This document shows, one piece after another, positions 1,055 to 58,402 of a stretch of DNA of 64,000 bases. The position numbers and the translations under genes are program-made. The stretch covers positions 32,001 to 96,000 of the IMG/VR virus record IMGVR_UViG_3300005274_000001. One strand, written 5' to 3'. This DNA is from a virus. Positions within the stretch are counted from its first letter, which is position 1; each line of letters starts with the position of its first letter. Under the pieces are notes generated by a model. It did not search any database and was not told where the DNA came from. It worked only from the letters and a program-made list of their open reading frames with translations.

Positions 1055-1570
1055 TTAGAATACCTCAATCTTTTCAAGATTTCTTATGAAAGAAGTTTGT
1101 TGAAGTTCGCCCAAAGTCTTTTCTTTAAAAAATCCACTTTTCATTTTAAATACATAAAGTTCGCTTTCCTTAAAATTCAATAAATCGTTTTTGTTAAAGA
1201 AAATAATCGTATGCGAAAAAGAATAGTTTACTCTTGAAGCTAAGTTATACCTGTATATTCTGTACACATTAGTTAGGTAAATTATTTTTTCCTGTATTAG
1301 TTGCTTTAGTGTTTCTATTGATAGAGTAAATGACTTTTTGCTGTTTCTGAATAGAGAAATTTTTATCATTGAATTTTCACCAGCAAAAATGATTTCGTTA
1401 GCATCTAGAAATCTTAAAAAATCAACAGTACTTACATAAAAAATATTTGTCGAAATCTTGCTTTTTCCTAGATTAATGTAACACTTCAGGTTAAATTTTC
1501 TAAAGTTAAAATTTCTTTGAAGATACTCTTCATAACGCTCAATGGTTTTTAGCTTGTTCAAAAGACTCAT
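1055..1570 (-). CDS. Hypothetical protein, outlier member of the EVF-tail family
   Basis: 171 aa, basic/aromatic, ends KIEVF; own extended -10 promoter (TGtTATAAT, 1580-1588). Confidence 0.75.
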   Translation of the reverse strand: MSLLNKLKTIERYEEYLQRNFNFRKFNLKCYINLGKSKISTNIFYVSTVDFLRFLDANEIIFAGENSMIKISLFRNSKKSFTLSIETLKQLIQEKIIYLTNVYRIYRYNLASRVNYSFSHTIIFFNKNDLLNFKESELYVFKMKSGFFKEKTLGELQQTSFIRNLEKIEVF

Positions 1571-31779: not shown

Positions 31780-32019
31780 TTACTCTATGAGGATCTTGCG
31801 AATCTTCCCCCCTTTTTCCTCAACCCTCACCTTGCCATACTTGGTATCCTCGTATCCGACAACCCTCCATGTAGTATTCTTGCGGCAATCTTCACAATGC
31901 TTGGGTGGCCTCGTCTTTGCCTCAGCAATAAACTCCTTGCCACACTTAGCGCAGGTGAGGATGATCTTTTTGGCGCTTGGAGCCTTCCTAGCCTCTTTTT
32001 TTGCCGTGTTCTTTCCCAT
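31780..32019 (-). CDS. Basic Zn-ribbon protein (copy 1)
   Basis: 79 aa; CAKC...CEDC; AGGAGG SD. Confidence 0.8.
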   Translation of the reverse strand: MGKNTAKKEARKAPSAKKIILTCAKCGKEFIAEAKTRPPKHCEDCRKNTTWRVVGYEDTKYGKVRVEEKGGKIRKILIE

Positions 32020-37816: not shown

Positions 37817-38359
37817 TTAGAAAACCTCGTTAAGCCTATAAAAGCAAATCTTTCCTAGCATTGCAGAAACCTCTATTTTTAGAGAGGTTTCTTCAGGTTT
37901 TGTATTTTCAAAGGTTATATAGTAATCGGGAATAAAGATTTGACCTTTTTTAAAATCAAAGATGTTGTCAATAGCGTAAAAGTATTTCTTGCTTACAACT
38001 TTAACTCTTATTTTGTCGCTATAAAGTCCACTTATTCCATTTGATGGAATAGCATAATCTGCTATGTAAAAAGCTATATCGTTTTTAAAAGTTTTTATTT
38101 TTTTTATCGCAAATTTGTCAAGAAGCGATTCAAAAGGTGCAGATCTATAGTGATAAAGATTTTTAACAAATAAAGTTCCCAGATCAAGAATTGTGTCTAT
38201 ATCATATTTGTCTTCCTCAAAAATCATCATTGGAAACCTTTTCTTTTCATTAAAGTCAAACTTATTTCCATTTTGAGTAATATAGTATCTAAACACTACA
38301 AGCGCCTCGTCAATGAAGATTTTCTCAAAAACTTCTGTATCTATCACTTTTCTAATCAT
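37817..38359 (-). CDS. EVF-tail family protein
   Basis: 180 aa, ends NEVF. Confidence 0.8.
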   Translation of the reverse strand: MIRKVIDTEVFEKIFIDEALVVFRYYITQNGNKFDFNEKKRFPMMIFEEDKYDIDTILDLGTLFVKNLYHYRSAPFESLLDKFAIKKIKTFKNDIAFYIADYAIPSNGISGLYSDKIRVKVVSKKYFYAIDNIFDFKKGQIFIPDYYITFENTKPEETSLKIEVSAMLGKICFYRLNEVF

Positions 38360-38889
38360 CAGAACACCTCCTCTATTTCGTATTCATACAAAGTTCCGAT
38401 TAGTCCTTCTATCATTCCAGAAAGTTCATCTGTATCTTTCAAAAGTATTTTCCTTTGCGCAGCAAATAAAGTATCGCCTTCTATTACTTCTTTTAAATTT
38501 TTTATCTCTTCTATTTGAGAAGGCCTAAGATAAACAATAGACATTTTGTAGTCATTAATAACATGTTCGCTATAATCATCAATAAAAACCGAGAAATACT
38601 TTTTTTCAATGGCTTTGCTACAAATAACCTTTGTGCTGAAAGTTTTCAACAAATCTCTCTCAAGAGATAAACACGACAAGTTGTTGTAAAAATACTCAAT
38701 TGATCTGTAAAAAGTTTTGTTGTCTACGAAATCACAAATAATGAAAGATTTGTACAAAGAAAACTCTCCTACTATTTCGTCAGCAAAGCGATTGTTTTTG
38801 CTGGGATAATAGTCTAGTTCTAGATATGCTTTATATCTCTTCAAGATTTTAAAGGACTTTGACTCCAAGAAACCTTCTATTGCTTTCAT
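38359..38889 (-). CDS. EVF-tail family protein (paralog of 39601-40122)
   Basis: Ends EEVF; YLRPSQIEEIK..DTLF..SGMIEGLIGTLY. Confidence 0.8.
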   Translation of the reverse strand: MKAIEGFLESKSFKILKRYKAYLELDYYPSKNNRFADEIVGEFSLYKSFIICDFVDNKTFYRSIEYFYNNLSCLSLERDLLKTFSTKVICSKAIEKKYFSVFIDDYSEHVINDYKMSIVYLRPSQIEEIKNLKEVIEGDTLFAAQRKILLKDTDELSGMIEGLIGTLYEYEIEEVF

Positions 38890-39600: not shown

Positions 39601-40122
39601 TCAAAACACCTCATTAACCTTATATGTATACAAAGTGCCCACTAACCCTTCTATTATTCCTGAATATTCATCAACATCATCTAGAAATACTTTTCTTTTT
39701 GCAACAAATAAAGTATCAGCATCTAGCAAATCTTTCACATCTTTTATTTCTGTTATTTGCTGTGGCCTAAGATAAGCAACACGTACCCATAAACTTTCTT
39801 CAAGAGTTGGATAAATGCTAAATACGATTGAATAATACTCTTTGTTTATTTTTTCCTCACCCAAAAATCCTACATCAAATTCCTTTGAACCACCTCTTTT
39901 AACAGGAACAGATAAGAATCTATTGTAAAAATGTTCAATGCGCTTATAAAAAACTTGGTATTTCTCAGAATAATCACAAGTAATAAGTGTTTTATAGGAT
40001 TCAAAACTAGAAACTATTTCTTTAGCAAAAATATTTCTTTCGCTAGGATGATAAGTAACTTCCATATAAGCCTTCTTTTTGCTAAGAATTTCAAATGGGG
40101 CTGCTTTTAGAAATCTTTCCAT
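39601..40122 (-). CDS. EVF-tail family protein
   Basis: 173 aa, ends NEVF. Confidence 0.8.
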   Translation of the reverse strand: MERFLKAAPFEILSKKKAYMEVTYHPSERNIFAKEIVSSFESYKTLITCDYSEKYQVFYKRIEHFYNRFLSVPVKRGGSKEFDVGFLGEEKINKEYYSIVFSIYPTLEESLWVRVAYLRPQQITEIKDVKDLLDADTLFVAKRKVFLDDVDEYSGIIEGLVGTLYTYKVNEVF

Positions 40123-41283: not shown

Positions 41284-41531
41284 TCGCTCACCTCCTCCTC
41301 TCCCCTAAAGCCTACTACTAAAGCCTTATAAGGTCAAGGGGGGAATAGGAAAAGGCCTTGTGGGGATAGAGAGGGGGGACAAGATTTTACGAGGGAAAGG
41401 CTAGCAGGGAAATATATATTTAGAGGATAGCGTTTACTTGTTTTCTCTTTAAGTTTTAAAAAATAAAAAAACATTGGAAAGGAAGGTTTGTGAGGAGATT
41501 TAAGGAAGATTTGTGAGAGGATTTGTGGAAA

Positions 41532-43190
41532 CTATTCCAAATCTTCCATTTTAACGATTGTGTATCCTTTACTCAACAAATCATTGAATGCTTGAGTACT
41601 ATAATCTTTTGTAGCGATTACAACAGCATCCCTAGGAAGTTTTTCTAACCCATAAATGTACAAATCTGTAATCACAATACCAGGAATATTCTTTTTGGCA
41701 ACATGCTCAAAAACTTTGTCAAAAACACTTCCTCCACCGCCATTAATACCATTTTTCACGGCTTTGTGAAGCTTTGCTACACTATTAACATTCTCTATCT
41801 CTTGAAAATCAACATCATTGAAATAGAGGAACACATTTGCATTATTCTCTACCAAAAACCTCAATAGCTTCATTGATTTTTCCAAATCTTCACCGCCCAT
41901 TGAACCTGAAGTATCTACGATAACATACATTTCAAGGCCAAAGTATTTTTTCTTTCCTAAGACTAGACCATCATTGCTCTTAAAGGATTTCTTGGGGTAC
42001 ACAATCCTATGCCTAAAATATCCTCCACGATAAAGGCGATTAAATAACTGGAGAACAAACTGAGGAATCTTTATTTTCTCATTAGTAAGGAGAATATTTC
42101 TTAGGAAGCCGTGTGCAGTACCGATATGCTTTTTATTTTTCTCAAAAAATCCTTCAAGTATTCTCCTGTTCTTTTCGTCATCATAATCACTAACTTCATT
42201 ACCCTCGCCAATAAGTTGACGAATGATTTCATCTTTAATGGCATTATCTAATGGGCCAAATGAGGAAGCATTTGCAAGATTATTTTTGAAATCCTGATCA
42301 TTTTTTGCCTTTTCCCTTATCTGATTAGCTACATCATTGAAGATATTGTTCACCAAATCAAAGAAGTTACCATAAGAATCTCCATTTTGTGAGCCGTTAT
42401 TAGATTGAGAATCTTGTTCTTGTTGATTATTTTGTCCACCTTGTTGATTACTATTGTTTTGTTCACCCTGATTCTGTTGACCATTTTTGTTTTGATTGTT
42501 ATTTTGATTTTGTTGGCTACCTTGATTATTTAGATGTTTATCAATAGTTTCACTAATCATTTGCGAAATCTCCTTTGCTACGGGTTCAAACAAATCAAAG
42601 AAGAACTCTATTAGTTCATAATCACTCATTTTCTTTAGTTGTTCAATATCAACACCTTTAAGATTTGGTTTAAGTTGCATTCCTAGAGTATTAACTCCAC
42701 TACGAATAGTTTTTTCAAAGTTTTCAAAGCATACACTATTCTCCTTGATTTCTTTGGGATCATCAATGAACTGATAGACGATTTCTTGAATGAACAAGTC
42801 TAAGACAAAGTTAGTAAGCATTGGATTCCTCTTAAAATAATGTTCAAATCTTCTAATGTGAGATAATCTCTGGTGTAGTATTTCATGGAATAAAGTAGCA
42901 CCAACAGCATTATAAACAGGAGTATATTTGGTGAAAAGCTTTTCATTAAGATAAATCACAGGCTTGTTTCTCTCATAGGTAGTGAAACCATACATACCAA
43001 CATTTTGACCATTAATCTCATCGGGGAATATATAAATATCTGCCACAAGTAAATCTTCATAACCATTGAGAGTATAAAGTAGAGGTTCTTTATTTTTGGT
43101 ACGATTTGGAGCAAAAAGGATTACTTTAAAGATATCCAAATATTCAGTATCTTCAATCTTTTTGGCTGCGGCTTTAATGATATCAGTCAT
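41532..43190 (-). CDS. Metallopeptidase-vWA protein (DUF2201-like)
   Basis: FHEILH zincin motif, Q/N-rich linker, MIDAS VDTSGSM, GGGGS, ITD. Confidence 0.85.
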   Translation of the reverse strand: MTDIIKAAAKKIEDTEYLDIFKVILFAPNRTKNKEPLLYTLNGYEDLLVADIYIFPDEINGQNVGMYGFTTYERNKPVIYLNEKLFTKYTPVYNAVGATLFHEILHQRLSHIRRFEHYFKRNPMLTNFVLDLFIQEIVYQFIDDPKEIKENSVCFENFEKTIRSGVNTLGMQLKPNLKGVDIEQLKKMSDYELIEFFFDLFEPVAKEISQMISETIDKHLNNQGSQQNQNNNQNKNGQQNQGEQNNSNQQGGQNNQQEQDSQSNNGSQNGDSYGNFFDLVNNIFNDVANQIREKAKNDQDFKNNLANASSFGPLDNAIKDEIIRQLIGEGNEVSDYDDEKNRRILEGFFEKNKKHIGTAHGFLRNILLTNEKIKIPQFVLQLFNRLYRGGYFRHRIVYPKKSFKSNDGLVLGKKKYFGLEMYVIVDTSGSMGGEDLEKSMKLLRFLVENNANVFLYFNDVDFQEIENVNSVAKLHKAVKNGINGGGGSVFDKVFEHVAKKNIPGIVITDLYIYGLEKLPRDAVVIATKDYSTQAFNDLLSKGYTIVKMEDLE

Positions 43191-43207
43191 CTTCCTCTAC
43201 CCCCTTT

Positions 43208-44251
43208 CTAAACACCTTTCTTAGAGATATTCTGCAGATACTTGCTCAGCGCACTATTCTTGTGAGTATGAGCATATTCATATACATTGGCCTTCCATTC
43301 ATTACCATTTACTAGTGCAGTATAGGAGAGCATGTAGTGATCGTACTTTTTGTGATTTTTGTGAATGTATTCAAAGATCTCATTAAACTTGTTCAAATCA
43401 ATCATTCCCCTTTTTACAAGATCTGCTACATCTACGATTAGCGAAAGAACCTCGCTATCATTACGAGGATAATCACCTTTAGCATAGTTTTTGAAAGAGT
43501 AATATCTGCCTTGAATAATATAGTTTTTGAAGGCCAAGTATACTTTCTTTCCAGAAGATCCAGAGATGATGATATCAAGCTCGCTATCAATAGACATAAC
43601 ATAATCTTCATTTCCTACCATTTCGTTATTGATTAAATCCTTTAAAAGGATAGCAGTACGAGTATTATTTCTTGGGGAAGGATATTGGTTTAGGTCGTCA
43701 TCCTTGGGTTCTTCATAAAACATATGATCTGGACTATTAAGAATGAAAGATACAAAAAGAGGATTTCCGCCCCTACTCATCGTATATGAAGCCCATTCCT
43801 CCTTGGAAGGAATGGGAAAATCTATAACCACAAACCTTTCTACTAATGGACGAGGGATTATTGTAGCTACTGAAGATTGTTCAGGTTTATTGCCTGTAGC
43901 AATAAAGTAAATATTTTCAAACCTTTTGTCGCCAATCCTCTTATCAAGAACAAGGGATTGCAACAAAGAATGCATATCAGGATTTCTGTTAGTTAGCTCA
44001 TCAAGGATTACAACCTTATTATTAAGATCAAAAGTGATGAAGTGAAGCATCTCCTCTTTAACCTGGGGGAAAGAGATATTTTCAGGGAACATTTGCGAAA
44101 CATTAAGATAGAACACATCTAAACCCATTTCTTTTGCGATTTCCCAAGCGATACTAGTTTTTCCTATTCCCCTATCGCCGAGGAATAGGACAGGAAACCC
44201 ATTGCTAAGAATCCTTTTAGCGATGTTTTTGACCTTTCCTACTTTCTCCAT
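43208..44251 (-). CDS. MoxR/AAA_5-type ATPase
   Basis: GDRGIGKT Walker A, ILDE Walker B, ATGN sensor I, PLVERF R-finger, PSPR sensor II. Confidence 0.88.
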   Translation of the reverse strand: MEKVGKVKNIAKRILSNGFPVLFLGDRGIGKTSIAWEIAKEMGLDVFYLNVSQMFPENISFPQVKEEMLHFITFDLNNKVVILDELTNRNPDMHSLLQSLVLDKRIGDKRFENIYFIATGNKPEQSSVATIIPRPLVERFVVIDFPIPSKEEWASYTMSRGGNPLFVSFILNSPDHMFYEEPKDDDLNQYPSPRNNTRTAILLKDLINNEMVGNEDYVMSIDSELDIIISGSSGKKVYLAFKNYIIQGRYYSFKNYAKGDYPRNDSEVLSLIVDVADLVKRGMIDLNKFNEIFEYIHKNHKKYDHYMLSYTALVNGNEWKANVYEYAHTHKNSALSKYLQNISKKGV

Positions 44252-44382
44252 CTTTACCTCCCTTGCCCCACTAGAGGGGCACTCCTAGCCTATCACAAGG
44301 CCATAGGTTTGGTCAAGCGCCTCCTTGCAAGTGAATGCGCTAAGCGCAACAATAAAAATAGGATAGCGTTTATTTATTTTCC

Positions 44383-45078
44383 TCAAAAAACTTCTTCAAG
44401 AAAAATGTTTAGCGAAAAGTGGTAGTTAAAATAAAACACTCTGTCATTTATTCGTTCACCAGAAAGATAAAACTTGTGATTTAGTGTCTTTGAGAGATTG
44501 TAGAGGATTTTTTCTTCATTTATTTCTCTTGGCGCTGAAATCAGGTTTTCAAAAAAGACTTCCTTCAAAACATTGCTGTAAACGCTTGGATTGCTACGAT
44601 AATAGTAAGCATCTTTTATTGTTGCGAAGTGCAAATAAACGATTGTGTCGTAGTTTGAGGGGAGTTTGTATAGCTTATCTTCGTTTTCTAGTTCTATTGA
44701 TAGGAGATGATACTTTTCCTTGATTTTCTTTTTTATTGGGTTTTGTTGAAATGCTAGGCGATAAATCTTTTTCTTACTCAAAAATTTTTTAAACTTGTGA
44801 GCTACTTGTTTTACAAAGCTATCAAAATCATTGGGGGTTGTATAGTATTTTTCAAATCCTCTTTTTACTTCAAATCTTAGCGTTGAGGTTTTGTATTGAA
44901 CAATAAAAAATTTTGAGGATTCTTCTATTTCTGTTTTTAGCGATGCCAACCTTTTTTCAAATATTTTTAAAAAGTCTTCTTGTGAAAATATAGACAAAGT
45001 TTTTGTTTTAATCTTATACTTTAAATTATTTTTGGGCCTATAAAGAGTAATCGTGATTAGCTTAGCATCAGCAGACAT
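44383..45078 (-). CDS. EVF-tail family protein
   Basis: 231 aa, ends EEVF. Confidence 0.75.
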   Translation of the reverse strand: MSADAKLITITLYRPKNNLKYKIKTKTLSIFSQEDFLKIFEKRLASLKTEIEESSKFFIVQYKTSTLRFEVKRGFEKYYTTPNDFDSFVKQVAHKFKKFLSKKKIYRLAFQQNPIKKKIKEKYHLLSIELENEDKLYKLPSNYDTIVYLHFATIKDAYYYRSNPSVYSNVLKEVFFENLISAPREINEEKILYNLSKTLNHKFYLSGERINDRVFYFNYHFSLNIFLEEVF

Positions 45079-45100
45079 ATCTCATTTTTGCAAAACGAAA

Positions 45101-45136
45101 AGAAAACTTCACTACCCCAAAGCGGGGTAGTGAAGT
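45101..45136 (-). terminator. Rho-independent terminator
   Basis: ACTTCACTACCCC-GCTTT-GGGGTAGTGAAGT + T-tract. Confidence 0.85.
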
Positions 45137-45147
45137 CTAAATATTGC

Positions 45148-45900
45148 TTAGAACAAGCTCATGATGTTGTATTTATCTACGAGGATTTTAGTGAACTCTT
45201 CAGATGTGCTTACCAATCCCTTAACAGCATTCAAGGACTCATTATTCTTTTCTACGATATCAATAGCTAGCTGAACCATATCCCTAACATTCGTGATGTA
45301 GCTCTTTAGAAACTCAACATTAATCTCACTCTCTTTAGCTACACTATTTAGGGCTTTTTTAACTACTCTTGGCCCAAAAGCTTTCAAGAACCTTTCAATG
45401 TCTTTATCATCAACCTCTTGTTCTAGGAAAGTATTGGCAACATCCCTATTCTCCTCAAGAATGTTGATGATTTTGTAGACATCACGCTTCATAATATTCC
45501 CCTTTGTATGTTTATTGGAGAAGTTTAATAGAAGAGGTTTGTAAATAATATTTTCCTTAAACATACCGGAATAGGAGTTTACATAGTAAATAGCATCATT
45601 CTTTGTGAGAAAATAGTAGCGAGAAATATACACAGGATTATCAGGTTCAAACATTGGATTAATGCTGTCAAGTTCAGAGAACTTGAAAACGCCATAACGA
45701 GAAGTAACATAGTTAAAGAAGAGTTTTTCGGTTTCATGGGCCAAAATGTATTCATCGCTAAAAAGATTAATGAGGACCAAATCATTTTCAAAATCCTTAA
45801 CATTATTTACCCTAAGAACATAGAAAAAGCTTTTACGAAGATTTTCCACAAGATTAACTGCTTCGCCTAACTGGTAGATCTTCATCTCTTTCTCCTTCAT
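45148..45900 (-). CDS. Hypothetical protein, possible partner of the AAA/vWA pair
   Basis: 250 aa, ends MSLF; same promoter-hairpin-GGGAGGTAA leader as the ATPase gene. Confidence 0.8.
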   Translation of the reverse strand: MKEKEMKIYQLGEAVNLVENLRKSFFYVLRVNNVKDFENDLVLINLFSDEYILAHETEKLFFNYVTSRYGVFKFSELDSINPMFEPDNPVYISRYYFLTKNDAIYYVNSYSGMFKENIIYKPLLLNFSNKHTKGNIMKRDVYKIINILEENRDVANTFLEQEVDDKDIERFLKAFGPRVVKKALNSVAKESEINVEFLKSYITNVRDMVQLAIDIVEKNNESLNAVKGLVSTSEEFTKILVDKYNIMSLF

Positions 45901-46077
45901 CTCTTACCTCCCCGCCTAACCCTATGGGTAGGGCTAGGCTACCCCTAGCCTAACACTAAAGCGTTGTTTAGTCAAGAGGGGGGGTAATGGGTAGTGAGCA
46001 GAATGGGGCGCACTAAAGAATAGGATAGCGTTTACTTATTTTTGAGCGATTAAAAAAAATAAACGAAAGCATTTTTC

Positions 46078-46470
46078 TTAAAACAAATCTCTAAACACTA
46101 CTCTATCTTCAAGATTTATGTAGAACCTTACTAAGTCTTCTTCAAGAAATCCATAAAAACTAATGCTTGCAAATATGTGATAGTCTTTGTCTAGGTTTTC
46201 TGTATTTTTGTTTTCAACGATTTTGTAAAGAAACTTTTCGTTGCGAATATCAGTATTTTTTGAGGCGATTTTTTTATCATTGAAAAGAATGTCTATTTCT
46301 ACTTGGTGTATTTTGCTCACTTGAGAAAGGATTTTTCTATTAAACTTTCGCCAAAAAGGAATAAGACTAGAATGTTCTTTCATGCGATAAATAACTTCAT
46401 CAGATACTCTGCATTGCGAGAGATTTTGCAAAGATACAATAACTTTAGTAAAAACTTCTTTTCTTTTCAA
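46078..46470 (-). CDS. EVF-tail family protein
   Basis: 130 aa, ends RDLF. Confidence 0.75.
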   Translation of the reverse strand: MKRKEVFTKVIVSLQNLSQCRVSDEVIYRMKEHSSLIPFWRKFNRKILSQVSKIHQVEIDILFNDKKIASKNTDIRNEKFLYKIVENKNTENLDKDYHIFASISFYGFLEEDLVRFYINLEDRVVFRDLF

Positions 46471-47003
46471 ATCACCTCCTCTTTCATGTGAAGCTTCAAA
46501 ACAATGTCTAAAAGTATGTATTCGTAAAAAGAATCAGAATATTCTTCGTATTCATCATCATCAGCGTCAACTTTTCTTTTTCTATAGATTGAAGCATAGA
46601 TACTTGCTTTCCTAGCATTACTCTTTAAAAGATCGGGCAACGATTTCTTAAAAAGCTCATTAATGTTTCTAAGCAGAAAATCTGAATAGTTTTCATTATC
46701 TTTCAAAGAAAACTTAAAAGCCCTTATGTTAAAAGGTTCTTCATGAGTACTTGATTCAATAAACATATACAACACATCTTGCTCATTAGGCAAAAATGTG
46801 TGCAAATAACGATATAGGTTTTCAGCGTGCTCTAAAGCTTTATAAAAGTCTTCAAACTTAGGATTTGAAACTATTCTAGTTTCAAAGAAATCGTAAACTT
46901 CTTTAGATCCTTCTCTATCTTCTTCGTCTATGCAATAGTGTGAGCTATTAATATAGTATTCTTCAAGGTTAGCTATCATTTCCCATTTCCAAACTTCTTT
47001 CAT
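46467..47003 (-). CDS. EVF-tail family protein
   Basis: 178 aa, ends EEVI; paralog of the next two (MKE.W..., NP.FE.FY). Confidence 0.8.
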   Translation of the reverse strand: MKEVWKWEMIANLEEYYINSSHYCIDEEDREGSKEVYDFFETRIVSNPKFEDFYKALEHAENLYRYLHTFLPNEQDVLYMFIESSTHEEPFNIRAFKFSLKDNENYSDFLLRNINELFKKSLPDLLKSNARKASIYASIYRKRKVDADDDEYEEYSDSFYEYILLDIVLKLHMKEEVI

Positions 47004-47515
47004 TAGAACACCTCCTTTATTGTTAGAAACAACTCTACTTCAAGAGTTGCGTGTTGAGTGTATATGAAATCTAGTTCATAAATGTGAGATATCACTTGTT
47101 TTCTTTCAATACCGAAGTGTATTCTTATCTTCTTTGTGTTCCTTGAAATGATCTCTTTAACAATATCCTTAAAGTATTGATTTAGCTCAAACATAAGGTA
47201 ATCTGCATAGCTTCTGTAAACTTTCACTTTCTTTGTGTGCTCAGGGTGTAAAAGATTTATATTTTCTAAGTAAGATCTGATAAAAAACCTCTCATCCTTA
47301 CTATTAAAATCTTCCACAAGATACAAATAAAAATCTTCACCTTCTTTAAGTAGCTCATAAAACCTTTCAAAGGTTGGATTTTTTACGATTTTTTTAGAAA
47401 AGTCATCAAACATGTCAAAATCACCTACATCACCACCATCGTCCATAATATAGGCGTAACTTTTTACAGACATTCTTTCTATGCTAGATATTTGGCTCCA
47501 CAAAATCTCTTTCAC
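47003..47515 (-). CDS. EVF-tail family protein
   Basis: 170 aa, ends KEVF. Confidence 0.8.
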   Translation of the reverse strand: MKEILWSQISSIERMSVKSYAYIMDDGGDVGDFDMFDDFSKKIVKNPTFERFYELLKEGEDFYLYLVEDFNSKDERFFIRSYLENINLLHPEHTKKVKVYRSYADYLMFELNQYFKDIVKEIISRNTKKIRIHFGIERKQVISHIYELDFIYTQHATLEVELFLTIKEVF

Positions 47516-57700: not shown

Positions 57701-58402
57701 GTGTCTTTCGTGCTAAAGGTTTGCGCATTGGACCTAGGCTCAAGAAGGCAGGTTGCAGTAAAAGGAGTGATTGATGACGATATTCTGAGAATTAAGGACT
57801 ACAAATATACTTACATTGAAGAGGAAAACATAAAAGAGAAAATTAAAAAGCTAAATGAGTTTTTAGAGAAGAATGTTTTAAGCGAGGAGTTTGATTTTGT
57901 GATTTTAGAAAAAAAATTTAAGAGCACAAAAAAGACAAAATTAAAGGTATCGCATTCAGAATACAAAGCTTTTGTAATGCTAAATGAACACGCAAAAAAT
58001 AAACTTTTAAGCGAAGGCATTAATCTGTTGACTGTAGTGTCAAGCAACATTGAAGCTTTTTTTGTAAACTCAAAAAGAAGCAACTACTTTGTTCCTGGTT
58101 GGAAGCAAGTTCTTACTGGTATTAATAAACCTTCAGATAAGGACATTGAAGAAGCATTAAAAACTTTGTTAAAAGAAGGAAAAATTGTATACGAAGCAAA
58201 CACAAGTGAACTGACGCAAAATAAAAAAAGGTTTTATGTAGACTTTAATGACGCTGTAGGAATGCTTTATGCGTATATTCTAAGGCCAGAAATTTTTGTT
58301 TTAGAGGAGGCACCAAAAGAAGATGATGACAACAAAAATGACTTCTACGATGAGATTACAAAAGAGCTGCTAGAAAAATTTCTTGGCCCAATAGTGTCTT
58401 GA
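57701..58402 (+). CDS. RuvC-like (RNase H fold) Holliday junction resolvase/nuclease
   Basis: ALDLGS, VILEK, PGWK, DFNDAVG catalytic pattern. Confidence 0.65.
   Translation: MSFVLKVCALDLGSRRQVAVKGVIDDDILRIKDYKYTYIEEENIKEKIKKLNEFLEKNVLSEEFDFVILEKKFKSTKKTKLKVSHSEYKAFVMLNEHAKNKLLSEGINLLTVVSSNIEAFFVNSKRSNYFVPGWKQVLTGINKPSDKDIEEALKTLLKEGKIVYEANTSELTQNKKRFYVDFNDAVGMLYAYILRPEIFVLEEAPKEDDDNKNDFYDEITKELLEKFLGPIVS

Follow-up and report, generated by a model that had tools for sequence, protein, structure and literature searches.

How much does the position of a gene pair tell us about what the pair acts on? The question is raised by a 64,000-nucleotide stretch of viral DNA (positions 32,001 to 96,000 of IMG/VR record IMGVR_UViG_3300005274_000001; the window), in which positions 41532-45900 encode a MoxR-like AAA+ ATPase, a protein that joins a predicted zincin-type metallopeptidase domain to a vWA domain with a metal-ion-dependent adhesion site (MIDAS), and a further protein of 250 amino acids (aa). 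These genes lie in the middle of an array of genes whose products tend to end in Glu-Val-Phe (EVF) or a similar tail, and a first-pass annotation had proposed that the Glu or Asp of the tails completes the Mg2+ site of the MIDAS. Our analysis indicates that the locus is probably the phiYS40-clade form of the phage N4 gp24/gp25 module, situated in a hypervariable early region, and that its position is most simply read as inherited synteny and is not a proof of adaptor function. The pairing of such an ATPase with a zincin-vWA protein is already in print; what is new here is the 250-aa third partner, the behaviour of the module as an island, and the lineage-specific tails that surround it.

The locus and its source phage

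The window phage is a Thermus myophage of the phiYS40/TMA type. Thermus phages TMA and phiYS40 have 85-87% DNA identity to the stretch 41532-45900, and the source assembly is one 157-kb piece with about 32% G+C. The corresponding genes of TMA are TMA_105-108, which are annotated as 'hypothetical' and 'ATPase'. The stretch holds four minus-strand open reading frames (ORFs). The first-pass annotation had the limits of its three genes right and did not name the fourth ORF, which lies between two of them:

41532-43190, minus: zincin and vWA protein of the N4 gp25 type, 552 aa, with HExxHxxxxH and MIDAS
43208-44251, minus: MoxR-like AAA+ ATPase of the N4 gp24 type, 347 aa, PHROG 1297
44383-45078, minus: 231-aa protein ending in EEVF, phrog_37975, between the ATPase gene and the 250-aa gene
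45148-45900, minus: 250-aa third partner ending in SLF, with a homologue next to the ATPase in the metagenomic locus L012

The ATPase and its peptidase-vWA partner

The ATPase is intact, as had been claimed. It matches Pfam AAA at 36 bits and, marginally, AAA_5 (23.0 bits, cut-off 22), while AAA_3, the Pfam model for MoxR proper, gives no match. Residues 4-341 match positions 11-355 of 356 in phrog_1297 with E=6.4e-64, i.e. over the full length. The Walker A motif (GDRGIGKT; G25-K31-T32), the Walker B motif (ILDE; D84-E85), the sensor-1 residue N121 and the arginine-finger residues R134/R139 are all invariant in 18 ATPase relatives, down to 31% identity. The closest solved relatives by sequence are the midasin AAA modules and ClpA D2, over the P-loop core only. 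A tblastn search with the ATPase matched 732 phage records, including N4-like, rV5-like and RaK2-like jumbo phages and cyanophage S-TIM5, and recovered N4 gp24 and the LUZ7 and roseophage homologues; many of the weaker matches carry the annotation of a cyanophage clamp-loader subunit. MoxR-type ATPases are known as remodellers and not as threading unfoldases, and no aromatic pore-loop motif was evident, as judged by eye, in the alignment of the 18 sequences. The term 'unfoldase' of the first-pass annotation is accordingly unsupported.

The gene of the vWA protein starts 17 nt past the stop codon of the ATPase gene. Its 552-aa product contains both HEILHQRLSH and DTSGS, and both motifs are kept across the 16 sequences that were aligned, in line with the reading as a metallopeptidase-vWA fusion: the MIDAS residues D426/S428/S430/S488/D509 are invariant down to 21% identity, and HExxHxxxxH (H102/E103/H106/H111), whose last His is a candidate third zinc ligand, is at least 90% conserved. 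Both HExxH and DxSxS align with the same motifs in N4 gp25 and in phiFa_30 of Thermus phage phiFa, which are themselves strong matches to DUF2201_N and DUF2201. The protein is also matched by phrog_1314 (E=9e-14), PF09967 is precomputed on most of its close relatives, and its N-terminal domain is weakly similar to minimal gluzincins, namely minigluzincin MJ1213, and to BepA (E 0.02-0.06). Compared with N4 gp25 and phiFa_30, the window protein and those of its clade have about 100 extra residues and a low-complexity linker rich in Gln and Asn. The linker (window 42365-42520, residues ~224-275) lies between the zincin and vWA domains; a linker of different sequence is found at the same place in the metagenomic loci L010 and L012, and none in N4 gp25 or phiFa_30.

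The same pair is found in other phages. The peptidase-vWA gene adjoins the ATPase gene in N4, S-TIM5 and ABPH49 and is three genes off in phiFa, and in N4 and phiFa the pair sits among middle and replication genes. N4 gp24/gp25 have been reported as middle genes and as part of the core gene set of N4-like phages (PMC4193335). The N4 pair (PHROG 1297/1314) has the same order as in the window, ATPase first and then zincin-vWA, shares HExxH...H and DxSxS...D, and is a non-structural early or middle pair, as here. It differs in its sequence (about 21-24% identity), in the length of the vWA protein, which is about 170 aa longer in the window owing to the linker and an extra region, and in its surroundings, since the DUF932-like third gene described below and the Phe-tail array surround the pair here. 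No flanking paralogs and no C-terminal bias were found around the pair in N4, phiFa, S-TIM5 or ABPH49, so the pair occurs there without any array.

The pair of group 2.2 jumbo phages has the same architecture, a MoxR ATPase with a vWA partner whose N-terminal domain is a metallopeptidase, and a virion-assembly role has been suggested for it (Iyer et al. 2021, PMC7824862), whereas the window pair has early-type promoters and early-gene neighbours. The cellular pairs CbbQ/CbbO, NorQ/NorD and RavA/ViaA, and p618/p892 of Acidianus two-tailed virus (ATV), likewise combine an AAA+ ring with a vWA adaptor that grips the client through its MIDAS, the clients being known metalloenzymes or, in the virus, the tail. 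A zincin domain fused to the adaptor, as in the window protein, is absent from all of them. A literature search found no experimental function for the gp24/gp25-type pair, and a defence-system reading was rejected, PADLOC giving weak AAA matches only. An NCBIfam search gave nothing specific.

The module as an island in the Phe-tail array

That the module is embedded in an array of EVF-tailed proteins is confirmed, with an enrichment of terminal Phe far above chance. Of the 42 ORFs in 32228-58933, 27 have a terminal F, compared with 8 of 131 in the rest of the genome (p=3e-14); a terminal [ED]xF is found in 18/42 compared with 2/131 (p=4e-11); E or D stands at position -2 in 24 of 38 array proteins. 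The conservation of the two sets of genes is very different. In comparison with TMA and phiYS40, identity reaches 93-95% for the ATPase, 96% for the 231-aa protein, 90% for the 250-aa protein and 84% for the vWA protein, and many array genes are just 48-70% identical with the terminal Phe retained. Best supported by these sequence comparisons is that the module would be an island that evolves slowly within a hypervariable early array.

Among the array proteins BLASTP finds four small paralog groups only, and hhalign between shallow family profiles, covering part of the pairs, gave nothing above 7% probability. One detectable superfamily of array proteins is thus not shown, and the terminal F persists while the proteins otherwise diverge beyond detection by BLAST or hhalign. 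The F, V and E codons of the tail and the stop codons are all variable, and since synonymous codons vary, selection on the tail acts at the protein level. An origin at the nucleotide level (terminator T-run or overlap with a Shine-Dalgarno sequence) was for the same reason rejected as the main cause, and just three tails overlap a downstream Shine-Dalgarno sequence (EVF at 38359 and 47003, EVI at 46467). At these places (38359-38365, 47003-47009 and 46467-46473) the GAG-GTG of the tail also serves the following gene as its Shine-Dalgarno sequence, with a stop overlap TGATG or TAATG. Codon use in the tails is uneven: GTA serves for Val in 0/13 tails (37% genome-wide) and GAG for Glu in 7/15 (21%).

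The ten residues before the tail are rich in hydrophobic residues and poor in flexible ones (13% vs 24%), and their period-2 alternation is 2.26 vs 1.10 +/- 0.17, a value equalled by 0/2000 random windows. The alternation and the few flexible residues suggest that the tail closes a beta-strand and does not hang free as a flexible peptide. The AlphaFold2 model of the array family 38934/40777 reached a pLDDT of 43.6, too low to be of use, and the ESM Atlas held no usable match for the array protein at 39601-40122. A 171-aa protein ending in KIEVF is encoded at window 1055-1570 (minus), 30 kb from the array and among large conserved genes, so the tail is not restricted to the array.

Divergent relatives of the locus

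A metagenome scan gave at least three relative loci with ATPases 49-54% identical to that of the window. The layout of array, ATPase, vWA protein and array is maintained in three metagenomic loci, and the location of the module inside an array with shared tails, as first noticed in the window, is thereby seen in three divergent lineages. The tails themselves differ. In L012, 22 of the 26 array-size ORFs have F, L or I as the last residue and a hydrophobic one before it; Tyr stands at -1 in 14, position -2 or -3 is basic in 16/26, and position -2 is acidic in 1/26. In L010 the last residue is Leu or Ile in each of the five array ORFs, and the residue at -2 is acidic in 1/5. The tail types are accordingly EVF in the window, [KR]-Y-F in L012 and x-L-[LI] in L010, and the MIDAS is unaltered in both L010 and L012. 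As the MIDAS is constant while the tails differ, a conserved Glu or Asp of the tail cannot be the general MIDAS ligand.

The array has few plus-strand genes; one of them, at 57701-58402, has a homologue in L012 (5636-6346, 33% identity across 102 residues) that is similarly placed upstream of the module, which makes the gene a further conserved island within the hypervariable region. P0005 and P0024, encoded on contigs of 33-38 kb, are clear phiYS40-like phage proteins recorded under 'MAG: Candidatus Aenigmatarchaeota archaeon'. These contigs are probably phage DNA mis-binned into metagenome-assembled genomes of DPANN archaea, and such records could lead readers to take arrays of this kind as archaeal.

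The third partner and the 231-aa gene

The 250-aa gene had been put forward as a partner of the pair, and its conservation agrees with this. A homologue (36% identity over 139 residues) is located directly upstream of the ATPase gene in L012, whose ATPase is 49% identical to that of the window. An exhaustive profile search found 10 diverged representatives only, as would be expected of a protein restricted to this phage clade. No homologue was found by hhalign beside the pair in phiFa, APECc02 or ABPH49, and the gene upstream of the ATPase in L010 is not homologous to it.

The AlphaFold2 model of the 250-aa protein is confident (pLDDT 88.9, pTM 0.86) and predicts a beta domain at the N-terminus and a helical bundle at the C-terminus. 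Comparison of the model with the PDB gave nothing significant; the best VIA-align Z, 6.0, is to death-fold helical bundles and is within the noise for helical domains. Foldseek against BFVD matched several proteins of the DUF932/TIGR03299 'phage/plasmid-like protein' type with E 8e-5 to 7e-4 and probability 0.94-1.0, the TM values being just 0.30-0.44. A match to DUF932 at the sequence level was not found, and none of the 11 members of the 250-aa family has any Pfam match. The predicted DUF932-like fold is therefore a lead at the level of the fold and not a family membership.

The 231-aa protein is known in the phiYS40 lineage only. Its gene has no upstream Shine-Dalgarno sequence and begins directly past a strong terminator, and an A/T-rich -10-like element (gcAAAAATgagatATG) is found just before its ATG, at window 45079-45103. 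For phiYS40 a leaderless type of middle/late promoter has been reported, which the start of the 231-aa gene resembles, and the timing of this gene may be different from that of its neighbours.

Promoters and leaders

The 250-aa gene and the ATPase-vWA operon are preceded by similar regulatory DNA:

45944-45975, minus: sigma-A-type early promoter of the 250-aa gene, TTGACT ... TAGGCTAGG
45901-45946, minus: 5' leader of the 250-aa gene, predicted hairpin and GGGAGGTAA Shine-Dalgarno
44284-44316, minus: sigma-A-type early promoter of the ATPase-vWA operon, TTGACC ... TAGGCTAGG
44252-44286, minus: 5' leader of the ATPase gene, predicted hairpin and GGGAGGTAA Shine-Dalgarno
45104-45138, minus: intrinsic terminator past the 250-aa gene, 16-bp stem and T run
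44357-44372, minus: TAAACGCTATCCTATT motif upstream of the ATPase promoter, with a second exact copy at 46019-46034

The arrangement TTGAC[CT]-N-TAGGCTAGG is restricted to 44284-44316 and 45944-45975 (0 expected), and downstream of both promoters a G+C-rich leader is followed by GGGAGGTAA. The leader common to the two genes, as described in the first-pass annotation, thus stands as regards promoter and Shine-Dalgarno sequence. The predicted hairpins of the ATPase leader (-12.4 kcal/mol, z -1.5) and of the 250-aa leader (-19.1 kcal/mol, z -1.7) are no better than those of shuffled sequences (not significant). The unusual TAGGCT -10 also serves the next array gene (41309-41337), and about 35 promoters of the form TTGACA-N17-TAnnnT are found on the minus strand across the array. 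The sigma-A-type -35/-10 form was reportedly placed in the early class of phiYS40 by Sevostyanova et al. (2007). Judged by their motifs, the putative promoters before the module and across the array fit this early class.

The 16-nt TAAACGCTATCCTATT motif has 10 copies with at most 3 mismatches within window 25159-46034, against 0.9 expected, and every one is on the minus strand. Those at 41421, 44357 and 46019 are each upstream of an early promoter, at distances of 40-85 nt, and the motif may serve as the site of a regulator or as an UP-like element.

Interpretation

The locus may be pictured as follows. The ATPase and its zinc-peptidase-like/vWA-MIDAS partner would form an early-expressed operon, and the clade-specific, DUF932-like third protein would be expressed from a twin promoter. 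If the pair works in the way of CbbQ/CbbO, NorQ/NorD and RavA/ViaA, the metal of the vWA MIDAS would grip a carboxylate on a client protein, the bound client would be remodelled by the ATPase ring, and the zincin domain may cut it. The place of the module inside the hypervariable early region would have been held since the common ancestor of the clade, and for its location among Phe-tailed proteins inherited synteny would be the simplest account. Three observations weigh against this reading. The vWA protein of the window falls just below the curated Pfam cut-offs for its presumed family (25.6 against 26.4 for DUF2201 and 16.1 against 23.2 for DUF2201_N). Three lineages with ATPases as far apart as 49-54% identity retain the module inside lineage-specific, hydrophobic-tailed arrays, a co-location that could reflect function besides synteny. 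Finally, every member of the 250-aa partner family ends in two hydrophobic residues.

The last two observations are equally what one would expect if the array proteins were clients or adaptors recognised by their free C-terminal carboxylate and terminal hydrophobic or aromatic side chain, and not by Glu, each lineage's tail variant being matched to its own receptor (vWA protein, ATPase ring or DUF932-like partner). The survival of the terminal F beyond detectable homology and the variation of synonymous codons, which places selection on the protein, agree with such recognition, as does the length of the vWA protein, about 535-550 aa in the array-bearing lineages vs 380 aa in N4 and phiFa. However, the tail directly prolongs an amphipathic beta-strand, without a linker, and resembles a piece of the fold, the pair occurs in four other lineages that lack an array, and separate expansions of one founder gene can also yield lineage-specific tails; we regard recognition of this kind as unlikely. 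It is equally doubtful, if tempting to speculate, that a tag-addressed trio matures, loads or removes some 30 early host-takeover proteins in a timed way. Recognition through Glu or Asp, with an unfoldase/protease served by about 30 adaptors, is very improbable. In its favour are the intact and invariant MIDAS, the E or D at -2 in most of the window's array proteins and the known binding of acidic ligands or peptides to MIDAS sites (PMC7159879). Against it, acidic residues at -2 are limited to 1 of 26 proteins in L012, where basic ones dominate, and to 1 of 5 in L010 with its hydrophobic tails, the MIDAS being unchanged in both; the amphipathic strand leads into the tail without a flexible linker, so the tail is not the free peptide that such a ligand would have to be; and the ATPase alignment shows no evident pore-loop motif. 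The figure of about 30 interchangeable adaptors was pure inference. A quite different role, as virion-assembly chaperone and processing protease, has been proposed for the homologous jumbo-phage pair (Iyer et al. 2021), and the MoxR/vWA proteins of ATV have been shown to serve in tail assembly (Scheele et al. 2011, as cited). For the window we consider this role quite unlikely, as the module lies far from the structural genes, its sigma-A-type promoters and Shine-Dalgarno leaders have the same form as those of the presumed early array, and the pair of N4 and phiFa sits among middle and replication genes.

Significance

Overall, inherited synteny of an N4 gp24/gp25 module remains the reading that we prefer. 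The module is widespread, relatives of the ATPase occur in rV5-like, jumbo and cyanophage records, and the phiYS40 clade gives two handles on the pair, namely a conserved third protein and neighbouring proteins with lineage-specific tails as candidate clients. The thermophile system is tractable, and its proteins have the stability that biochemical and structural work needs. If the link between module and array fails, an attractive but wrong mechanism, from Glu to MIDAS, is removed; if instead the tails are addressed as tags, the array proteins would be the first clients for the orphan N4 gp24/gp25 family.

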